Shown here piece after piece: positions 443-1,848 of a stretch of DNA of 4,535 bases. Location: IMG/VR virus record IMGVR_UViG_2675903289_000012. The stretch is one strand, 5' to 3'. The stretch comes from a virus (Duplodnaviria > Heunggongvirae > Uroviricota > Caudoviricetes). Each line of letters begins with the position of its first letter. Position 1 is the stretch's first letter. The notes below the pieces were generated by a model. It was not told where the DNA came from. It did no database searches and was given only the letters and a program-made list of their open reading frames with translations. The position numbers and the translations under genes are program-made.

Positions 443-447
443 ATAGT

Positions 448-451
448 GGAG
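448..451 (+). promoter_or_regulatory. Shine-Dalgarno (GGAG) for the N-like gene, 5 nt upstream of ATG 457
   Basis: gtGGAGacagtATG read directly. Confidence 0.5.
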
Positions 452-456
452 ACAGT

Positions 457-1848
457 ATGGACTTACCTTCTTTACCTTCTCTTTCTTCACTCTTTTCTGC
501 ATCTTCAGGTATCAATTGGCGCGATAATCTTTACGACGCTTCATTTCGTGGCGTTCCGTTTTCGGTGGAGAGCGACGAGGGTTCGTTCGGACGCCGCGTT
601 CAGGTCCATGAATACCCAAACCGTGACAAACCGTACACGGAAGATCTCGGGCGTGCCACGCGACGGCTGACGATTAATGCGTATCTCGTTGGTGATGATT
701 ACGCAGAGCAGCGCGACAGGCTGATTACAGCGATTGAAACCGCCGGGCCGGGGACGCTGATCCATCCGCAGTTCGGTGAAATGCAGGGCTGTATTGACGG
801 GCAGGTGACCGTTTCTCACTCCGGCACTGAAGGCCGTATGTGCCGGGTTTCATTTCAGTTTGTTGAGAGCGGGGAACTGTCATTTCCGGTCGCCGGAGCT
901 GCAACCGCCAGAAAACTGGAGGAGTCGTCCGTATTCCTGGATGAGTTGATTGAAGACATGTTCGGCGATTTTGATCTCGCGGGAATACCGGACTTTATTC
1001 AGAACGATGTTATTGCCCGGACGACCGATATGCTGGGAACCGTTCAGACAGCTTTCAAAATGGTTAATTCGGCTGTTTCTGCCGGAGCGAGACTACTGCA
1101 GGGCGATTTATCCGTCATTCTGATGCCGCCGTCGGTTGCCAGTGATTTTGTGCATACGTTGCAGGATACCTGGCGGGCCGGAACCCGGCTGGTGGATAAC
1201 ACACAGGATCTGGTGCAGTCCATAACGACAATGTCCGGCATTACGCTGGACCCAGGACTGGCACCGCGTGCGGTGTGGCCCACAGATTCCGCATCGGTTA
1301 TCAGGCAAAAACAGCAGACAAACCTTGTGGCTGCTGTCATCCGGACGACGGCAATCAGCGAAGCCACAAGGGCGGTCACTTCACTGCCACAACCCGGAAG
1401 CCTGGTGAAAAATCAGCAGGCGGTTGTGGCTGTTGGTGGTTCCACTGAACGTCAGTCCGATATTATTCACGTTTCTCATCCGGCACTTGACAGCGTGGCA
1501 GCCAGCACAGGACAGGATGAGAGAGCGCAACCACCCACGCGGGAAAATCTCACCATCATACGCAAATCGCTGAACGCGGCGATTGAACAGGAGCTCAGGC
1601 GTACGGCGGATGACAGGCTGTTTTTTCAGCTGACGTCATTACGTACAGAACTGAACCGGGATATTCAGGCGCGTCTGGTTCAGACGGAGGAAACCGCAGA
1701 GCGAACGCCAGCGGAAGTTCTGCCTGCGCTTGTTCTGGCTGCGTCATGGTACGACGATGCGTCCCGTGAAACTGATATCCTGGATCGAAATGCCATCTCT
1801 CATCCGGGCTTTGTTCCGGTCAGGGCATTAAGGGTACCCGTCAGATGA
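457..1848 (+). CDS. Mu N-like (gp43) DNA circularisation / tail protein, with an atypical low-complexity N-terminal leader
   Basis: 463-aa ORF with RBS. The N-terminal block WRDxLxxASFRGVPFxVE...FGRRxxVHEYPxRDxPYTEDLGR matches what I recall of the DNA-circularisation-protein N-terminal family. Followed by P-, Q- and V-like genes in Mu order. Stop overlaps the next start (ATGA). Confidence 0.75.
   Translation: MDLPSLPSLSSLFSASSGINWRDNLYDASFRGVPFSVESDEGSFGRRVQVHEYPNRDKPYTEDLGRATRRLTINAYLVGDDYAEQRDRLITAIETAGPGTLIHPQFGEMQGCIDGQVTVSHSGTEGRMCRVSFQFVESGELSFPVAGAATARKLEESSVFLDELIEDMFGDFDLAGIPDFIQNDVIARTTDMLGTVQTAFKMVNSAVSAGARLLQGDLSVILMPPSVASDFVHTLQDTWRAGTRLVDNTQDLVQSITTMSGITLDPGLAPRAVWPTDSASVIRQKQQTNLVAAVIRTTAISEATRAVTSLPQPGSLVKNQQAVVAVGGSTERQSDIIHVSHPALDSVAASTGQDERAQPPTRENLTIIRKSLNAAIEQELRRTADDRLFFQLTSLRTELNRDIQARLVQTEETAERTPAEVLPALVLAASWYDDASRETDILDRNAISHPGFVPVRALRVPVR
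463..480 (+). repeat. Tandem direct repeat, 2 x 9 bp (ttaccttct), within a polypyrimidine tract (about 462-507) encoding LPSLPS at the start of the N-like ORF
   Basis: Read directly: ttaccttct ttaccttct, followed by ctttcttcactcttttctgcatcttca. Confidence 0.8.

Follow-up and report, generated by a model that had tools for sequence, protein, structure and literature searches.

A probable native, clade-specific N-terminal leader at an old mosaic boundary in the tail-tube initiator gene of phiP27-family prophages

In bacteriophage Mu, gp43 is the hexameric tail-tube initiator, with an N-terminal tube-like domain that makes a 24-stranded barrel and a helix-rich domain that touches the baseplate wedges; a hexameric barrel that seeds the tube, and binding and circularisation of injected DNA, are established for Mu only (PMC11915804). 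We investigated a gene of this family, referred to as the N-like gene, in a 4,535-nt stretch of Caudoviricetes DNA (IMG/VR record IMGVR_UViG_2675903289_000012), which in its full length is called the window below. Its open reading frame (ORF) at 457-1848 encodes 463 amino acids (aa), starting with MDLPSLPSLSSLFSASSGIN, and is the tail-tube initiator ('DNA circularization protein N' or baseplate centrepiece) of a phiP27-family prophage, an element whose head genes are HK97-type and whose contractile tail is Mu-type. The protein matches Pfam DNA_circ_N (PF07157) over residues 25-110 with 124.2 bits, against a cutoff of 21, as well as phrog_184, 'baseplate hub'. Profile searches matched it over nearly its full length to Mu gp43 (PDB 9ki1, 'DNA circularization protein N') at E 2e-24, and also to the Milano 'baseplate centerpiece' gp25 and a phage 7-7-1 homologue. 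Foldseek, run with an AlphaFold model of moderate quality (predicted template modelling score, pTM, 0.55), gave 9ki1, 9rku and 8fqc as its best matches (E 1e-12 to 2e-14; 2e-14 for 9ki1). In relatives, the gene is flanked by the tape-measure gene on one side and the gp44/P-like hub gene on the other. A protein identical to that of the window occurs on at least 1000 contigs, with annotations in Shigella sonnei and further Shigella.

The protein is already known, and both RefSeq and phiP27 give it the same start; its 5' end is a case of ordinary phage mosaicism. From sequence comparison, the first 20 codons appear to be a genuine translated N-terminal extension that is specific to the clade and stands ahead of the tube-like beta-barrel beginning at W21. 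Taken as a whole, an account in which this native leader sits on an old mosaic boundary of the tube-initiator gene seems to us quite likely. The original prediction had read the same region as a chimera, in which the native start and upstream region were replaced by foreign DNA that supplied the terminator, the Shine-Dalgarno (SD) sequence, the ATG and an in-frame low-complexity leader.

The description behind that prediction was confirmed, with every feature found where it had been placed. The leader (457-516) is an AT-rich, polypyrimidine-encoded start of about 20 codons with a 2 x 9-bp tandem repeat at 463-480. It consists of 28 T, 17 C, 10 A and 5 G, which is 75% pyrimidine compared with 48% in the rest of the gene, and its GC content is 37% (0.37 vs 0.55). 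It uses TCT, CCT, TTA and CTT, whereas the gene body favours TCC/TCG, CCG and CTG. GC content at third codon positions (GC3) is 0.16 in the window leader, 0.37 in the phiP27 leader and 0.56 in the rest of the N-like gene. The first 20 codons of neighbouring genes have a GC3 of 0.53-0.68, so the low value of the leader is not a generic 5' effect. The conserved block, predicted to begin at about 517, opens with the invariant W21, whose codon is 517-519, and the predicted compositional junction inside the ORF is found at ~516/517, where GC3 (0.16 vs 0.56) and synonymous divergence (dS, 1.18 vs 0.13) both change.

The divergence follows from a comparison with relatives, in which two alleles of the leader were observed. 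Allele A, the window type, has the perfect repeat and always adjoins an inserted gene of the phrog_5586 family, while allele B, the phiP27 type, lies directly after the tape-measure gene, or once (L096) after a different insertion, and has an imperfect repeat, TTTCCTTCC TTACCTTCT. Leaders differ by 0-2 nt within an allele and by 16-17 of 60 nt between A and B (16 between the window and phiP27), while the next 60 nt differ by only 1-4. By the Nei-Gojobori method, the leader has a dS of 1.18 and a nonsynonymous divergence (dN) of 0.18, against 0.13 and 0.017 in the rest of the gene. Divergence between the alleles is therefore ~9-fold above that of the rest of the gene, with a binomial P of 3e-9 for the excess of mismatches. 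The dN/dS ratio of ~0.15 in the leader shows a peptide constrained by purifying selection. The last ~25 nt of the tape-measure gene are also diverged, while its body stays at 97-100% identity. The existence of two discrete, old alleles that are alike in dN/dS (~0.15) speaks against local hypermutation and for an old cassette with flanks that recombination has homogenised. The SfV-like clade shows the pattern again, with three alternative cassettes between near-identical tape-measure tips and N cores: a hairpin, SD and MT-W in SfV; a 24-nt spacer and MDLSSFPTRPSLLSSSSG-W in L165 and L167; and a homologous insertion, a terminator and MDFSHISSYLSSDSRSG-W in phage 720R4.

Between the tape-measure gene and the N gene there are 596 nt in window-type prophages and 15 nt in phiP27, which identifies the 596 nt as an insertion. 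It holds a 160-aa ORF that matches phrog_5586 at E 1e-88, followed by a terminator. Relative to phiP27, the upstream ORF and terminator are thus foreign, as had been proposed; the further claim that the SD, ATG and leader came with them to replace a native start did not survive the comparison. Among complete E. coli genomes, 11 records match window positions 29-1000, and the others, among the matches listed, match only from 453 onward, which is 4 nt before the N ATG. In this second group and in phiP27 (AJ298298, gene L48), which, going by the title of its GenBank record, we take to be an inducible, transducing phage, the tape-measure stop is followed by 15 nt, the ATG and then MDFPSLPSLSSLFSSSSGTT-WRDNLYDASFRGVPF, in a protein of 463 aa. 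UTME-13 has the same 15-nt spacing, the leader MDFPSLPSLSSLFSSSSGTT and again 463 aa. Long leaders without an insertion were observed in phiP27, UTME-13, L097-L101, L104, L105, L165 and L167. As phages free of the insertion have a homologous leader of equal length, the insertion did not supply the SD, ATG and leader. The original prediction had named intact phages with the same Ser/Leu/Pro-rich leader, similar in composition, as the finding that would count against it, and phiP27 is such a phage.

To compare leader length with insertions more widely, 160 further loci from species-representative genomes and IMG/VR were surveyed, yielding 116 distinct loci. A leader was considered long with at least 15 residues before W, and an insertion was counted from 250 nt upward. 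Long leaders were present at 5 loci with and 8 without an insertion, and short N-termini at 38 with and 65 without, so that no association was detected (odds ratio 1.07, Fisher p = 1.0). Homologues of the inserted gene, at 36-100% aa identity, also lie upstream of N genes starting MS-W, MAG-W, MAFFSTPD-W and MAFFSSTG-W. The lack of association, together with short-start N genes after the same insertion family, indicates that the insertion does not bring the leader.

The junction appears to be ancient, is common to intact phages and is not a local replacement. We propose that a small junction cassette, running from the tape-measure tip through the spacer (and, where present, an inserted gene), the SD and the ATG to the leader, would persist as old, strongly diverged alleles, while homologous recombination would have homogenised the flanking tape-measure gene and N core between phages. 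Crossovers would be possible only where identity resumes, at the conserved WRDNLYDASFRGVPF codons, and the sharp boundary of composition and divergence at the W21 codon would be the outcome of this homogenisation. The window would then represent allele A, linked to the low-GC inserted gene and its terminator, and phiP27 would represent allele B, placed directly after the tape-measure gene.

The expectation that the conserved block should lie close to the initiator Met was right for most of the family and wrong for Mu-type gp43. When family members were clustered at 50% identity, 115 of the 137 representatives had 2 or 3 residues before W (100 and 15, respectively), while in SfMu gp43 FRNVPF is preceded by 26 residues. 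A minority of representatives have extensions of 17-37 residues, for example MALIPQIPSLPALNPPKAS-W. In the AlphaFold model of the window protein, residues 1-18 are coil, with a predicted local distance difference test (pLDDT) score below 50, and the fold begins at residue 21; the leader is thus modelled as an arm that is probably disordered. The disulfide bond between Cys5 of the phage Milano homologue and Cys19 of the tube protein in the ring above (PMC10811340) suggests, by analogy, that the arm probably lies at the interface of the initiator ring and the first tube ring. The T-rich choice of synonymous codons may also serve translation initiation at the RNA level. RNA of the SD plus leader folds no more stably than shuffled sequences (z of +0.30 for the window, -0.56 for phiP27 and +0.44 for sal3), and only the terminator hairpins stand out from the shuffles.

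How the leader arose can be approached through a graded series of N-termini. Relatives at 50-59% identity start MS-W or MAG-W, those at ~60% start MAFETG-W, those at 63-68% start MAFFSSTG-W, MALFSSSG-W or MFFSSSSS-W, and those at 84-100% have the 20-aa leader. This series and the three degenerate 9-bp units (PSL-PSL-SSL) suggest that the leader grew in place, by slippage, from an F/S-rich N-terminus. We also considered that the leader could be a portable N-terminal module, exchanged between phages along with the tape-measure tip and whatever gene is inserted, W21 serving as a repeatedly used crossover point. The leader sequence would then fit the initiator to a partner in the same cassette, such as the tape-measure C-terminus, or its pyrimidine-rich RNA would set the translation of the baseplate genes downstream of the terminator. 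We regard this as a rather doubtful idea.

The replacement originally proposed, in which low-GC foreign DNA displaced the native start and upstream region in this lineage and gave the gene its terminator, SD, ATG and leader, draws on real features: allele A always adjoins the phrog_5586 insertion, the leader resembles the insertion in composition (GC content 0.37 in both; GC3 0.16 vs 0.31), and divergence climbs sharply from the tape-measure tip to nt 516. We nevertheless find it very unlikely, as phiP27 and most E. coli relatives have the same-length homologous leader without the insertion, the two alleles can be aligned in part over the SD region, N genes with N-termini of 2-8 residues also follow insertions of this family, and long leaders and insertions are statistically unassociated. 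What changed here is one allele of a pre-existing leader, not the creation of a leader. An older event is less easily dismissed, although still unlikely in our view: low-GC DNA, for example a moron cassette, could have been inserted before an ancestral MS-W N gene, after which the leader spread by recombination and outlasted the insertion in, for example, phiP27 and L165. In contrast to the starts of neighbouring genes, both alleles have a low GC3 (0.16 and 0.37); ~84% of family representatives are without an extension, which makes a short start the probable ancestral state; N cores with only 53% identity carry related leaders (MDL.S...PSL.S.SSG); and the 24-nt spacer of L165 resembles the T run and SD that follow the 720R4 terminator. 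Such a capture is set against the lack of any present-day association of long leaders with insertions, the F/S-rich N-termini of 7-10 residues in the closest sister clades, which look like intermediates of growth in place, and the three degenerate 9-bp units, which suggest slippage in place. No source sequence for the leader was found.

The other two alternatives concern the leader itself. If the start had been mis-called, the leader would be untranslated or fortuitously open and the protein would begin near W21, as would fit with the many relatives that begin 2-3 residues before W and with the low complexity of the leader. This is hardly credible given that no further in-frame ATG, GTG or TTG occurs after 457 and ahead of the conserved block, that GGAG lies 5 nt upstream of the ATG at 457, that both alleles preserve the frame and the 20-aa length although synonymous divergence is saturated (dN/dS ~0.15), and that 14 of 14 full-length cluster members that were read are 463 or 462 aa long. 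The remaining idea, to which we attach next to no weight, makes the 9-bp repeat a contingency tract prone to slippage, whose variation between strains would tune or switch the gene. Tandem Repeats Finder did report TTACCTTCT x 2.0 at 463-480 with 100% match, within a pyrimidine run. A perfect two-copy tandem of period 9-12 arose in only 21 of 20,000 composition-matched leader shuffles (0.1%), which places the repeat above chance, and it is the sole such tandem in window positions 1-3648. The copy-number variation between strains that was anticipated was not encountered: every allele A or B leader read, in ~20 intact loci and the 14 cluster members, is 20 aa long, and exact look-ups of versions of the window protein and of a common allele B protein with one Leu-Pro-Ser (LPS) unit fewer or more returned nothing among ~15 billion sequences. 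Slippage would leave the reading frame intact, since the length of the repeat unit is divisible by 3.

Several points weigh against the preferred account of a native leader on an old boundary. The GC3 of the leader (A 0.16, B 0.37) is far under the 0.56 of the gene and near the 0.31 of the inserted gene, which leaves room for an ancient origin from low-GC DNA. The second half of the leader, LFSSSSG, can be aligned with MAFFSSTG and MALFSSSG, although such a low-complexity alignment leaves homology uncertain. No donor lineage of allele A was found. Finally, because the prophage at the window locus is an IS1-flanked fragment, the N-like gene there is probably not in use.

The gene inserted upstream has a GC content of 0.37, against 0.52-0.55, and a GC3 of 0.31. 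Full copies lie between the tape-measure gene and the N gene in E. coli FDAARGOS_944 (L001:11900-12382) and AST215, and the gene is absent from phiP27 and UTME-13. In AST215, allele A and the inserted gene are within a head and tail module free of insertion-sequence interruptions. The terminator has a 10-bp stem with 5 GC pairs followed by TTTTTTT, with which the predicted fold agrees, and a similar hairpin follows the homologous inserted gene of 720R4. Morons and mosaic joints are concepts for temperate phages from Hendrix and co-workers. Like a moron, the gene is present or absent between the same two genes, deviates in base composition and has its own terminator. A simple, crude sigma-70 consensus scan of L001 11700-12500 found no promoter for it, and Pfam, NCBIfam and PADLOC gave no match, while phrog_5586 is listed only with 'unknown function'. 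The full protein starts with a signal-peptide-like segment, which in E. coli/Shigella contains a possible lipobox (AILTSC) and in the 720R4 homologue is a signal peptide lacking the Cys. The gene may be a moron for a secreted protein or a lipoprotein, with superinfection exclusion as one conceivable role. In the window copy, IS1 took off the signal peptide and lipobox.

The gap between the tape-measure and N genes was also observed to be an insertion hot spot in Enterobacterales prophages with Mu-type tails, with 250-1800 nt at 43 of the 116 distinct loci. ORFs inserted there are mostly of low GC content (~0.29-0.47), and homologues of the window ORF make up 17 of the 40 ORFs of at least 100 aa. 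A terminator-like hairpin lies directly upstream of N without an inserted ORF in SfV (L005 641-700) and sal3 (L004 647-679), and one was also seen directly upstream of N in AH07 (L006 ~656-700). The annotated start of SfV orf15 (MHGVYMT...) is probably 5 codons too far upstream, since GGAG precedes the second ATG (MT-W). Further Shigella/E. coli copies are interrupted by insertions at the same AT-rich place: in L095 (~200-260), an IS1 end is found upstream of the N ATG at a distance of 8 nt, and in L094 (~1120-1245), unrelated sequence takes the place of the ~9 first leader codons.

The features of the window are listed in Table 1. The window is a ~4.46-kb fragment of a prophage tail module between two inverted copies of one IS1 end. 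With the same terminus inverted at both ends, the tail-gene fragment appears trapped between two IS1 copies. The exact IS1-bracketed arrangement is also present in IMG/VR locus L093, where the ORF adjoining the junction is the IS1 transposase (NF033558, E 6e-42). The left IS1 removed the ~34 first codons of the upstream ORF, the right one cuts the gp47/J-like gene, and owing to IS1 the tape-measure gene is absent from the window. A gp46-like gene follows the spike gene and runs into masked stretches of N; the masked runs, at 3650-4150 and 4224-4458, break the gp46-like and gp47-like genes. The FDAARGOS_944 prophage (L001) is 100% identical to window bases 29-1000. It has ISEc60 in its portal and sheath genes and a frameshifted ipaH effector gene beside the tail fibres (L001 1-9107, 21275-22916), which marks it as a Shigella-like, defective prophage. 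Some candidate features were set aside. A plus-strand, GTG-initiated ORF of 74 aa at 446-670, hydrophobic at its N-terminus, overlaps the leader sequence in a different frame and was considered spurious, as the corresponding frame in allele B differs and closes after 27 codons. No minus-strand ORF of at least 40 aa covers 446-515. An Rfam RcsR1 hit on the terminator scored 24 bits against a cutoff of 60 and was treated as a sub-threshold chance match.

Table 1. Coordinates of features in the 4,535-nt window
Feature	Position	Strand	Remarks
IS1 terminal bases, truncating the upstream ORF	1-28	+	100% identical locus L093 has the junction ...gtcattacc/cgttaaaac
3' remnant (~codons 35-160) of the 160-aa low-GC inserted gene, phrog_5586	29-410	+	
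Intrinsic-terminator-like hairpin and T run, closing the inserted gene	416-445	+	Hairpin 416-438
Shine-Dalgarno GGAG	448-451	+	5 nt ahead of the ATG; aligns in part with the SD region of phiP27
Leader, codons 1-20 (MDLPSLPSLSSLFSASSGIN), allele A	457-516	+	Putatively translated, probably disordered N-terminal arm
Perfect 2 x 9-bp tandem TTACCTTCT (LPS-LPS), then a degenerate third unit	463-480	+	
Mosaic boundary where the old, diverged junction cassette meets the homogenised core of the gene	516-517	+	
N-like tail-tube initiator core (Mu gp43 family), tube-like then helix-rich domain	517-1848	+	
gp44/P-like baseplate hub gene, 4-nt overlap with the N stop	1845-2927	+	Pfam GpP-like domains
gp45-like spike gene	2905-3438		
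Second IS1 end, inverted relative to the first	4485-4535	-	Reverse complement equals the IS1 end of L093 and L095

None of these points changes current understanding, although they carry a caution: a sharp break inside an ORF beside an insertion looked like a fresh chimera, while relatives show an old, selectively kept N-terminal extension. They also describe the junction of tape-measure and tube-initiator genes in Mu-type tails as a hot spot for genes of small secreted proteins, and a tube initiator that tolerates, and in some clades conserves, a predicted disordered N-terminal arm of 17-37 residues. Recombination joints can fall a few dozen bases inside a structural gene, at its first strongly conserved codons.

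Set beside known systems, the window gene is closest to phiP27 L48 (CAC83566.1, 'hypothetical protein; unknown') and the RefSeq 'DNA circularization protein' WP_000365505.1, which are 96-100% identical to it and likewise 463 aa long. L48 also follows the tape-measure gene, precedes a gpP-like hub gene and has a 20-aa Ser/Leu/Pro-rich leader before WRDNLYDASFRGVPF. It differs in carrying allele B, with 16 of 60 nt and 4 of 20 aa changed and an imperfect repeat, and in having no inserted gene or terminator upstream. The inserted gene shares with morons its low GC content, its own terminator, its presence or absence between two conserved genes and its sharp ancestry boundaries; its right-hand joint differs in falling within the downstream ORF, 60 nt from the start, instead of at a border between genes. 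The crude consensus scan detected no sigma-70-like promoter upstream of it. Mu gp43 has the same order of a PF07157 N-terminal tube-like domain and then a helix-rich one, its gene is located between the tape-measure and gp44 hub genes, and Mu-type gp43 likewise has residues ahead of the conserved FR(G/N)VPF block. Identity to Mu gp43 is only ~18% in the Foldseek alignment, its N-terminal extension is unrelated in sequence to the window leader and is not encoded by pyrimidines, and the window phage, with its HK97-type head genes, is not a transposable Mu-like phage. The Milano gp25 'baseplate centerpiece' (PDB 8fqc; PMC10811340) and the 7-7-1 homologue (9rku) belong to the same fold family as the N-like protein, and differ from it in their short N-termini without a Ser/Leu/Pro leader and in an identity of only 15-17%.

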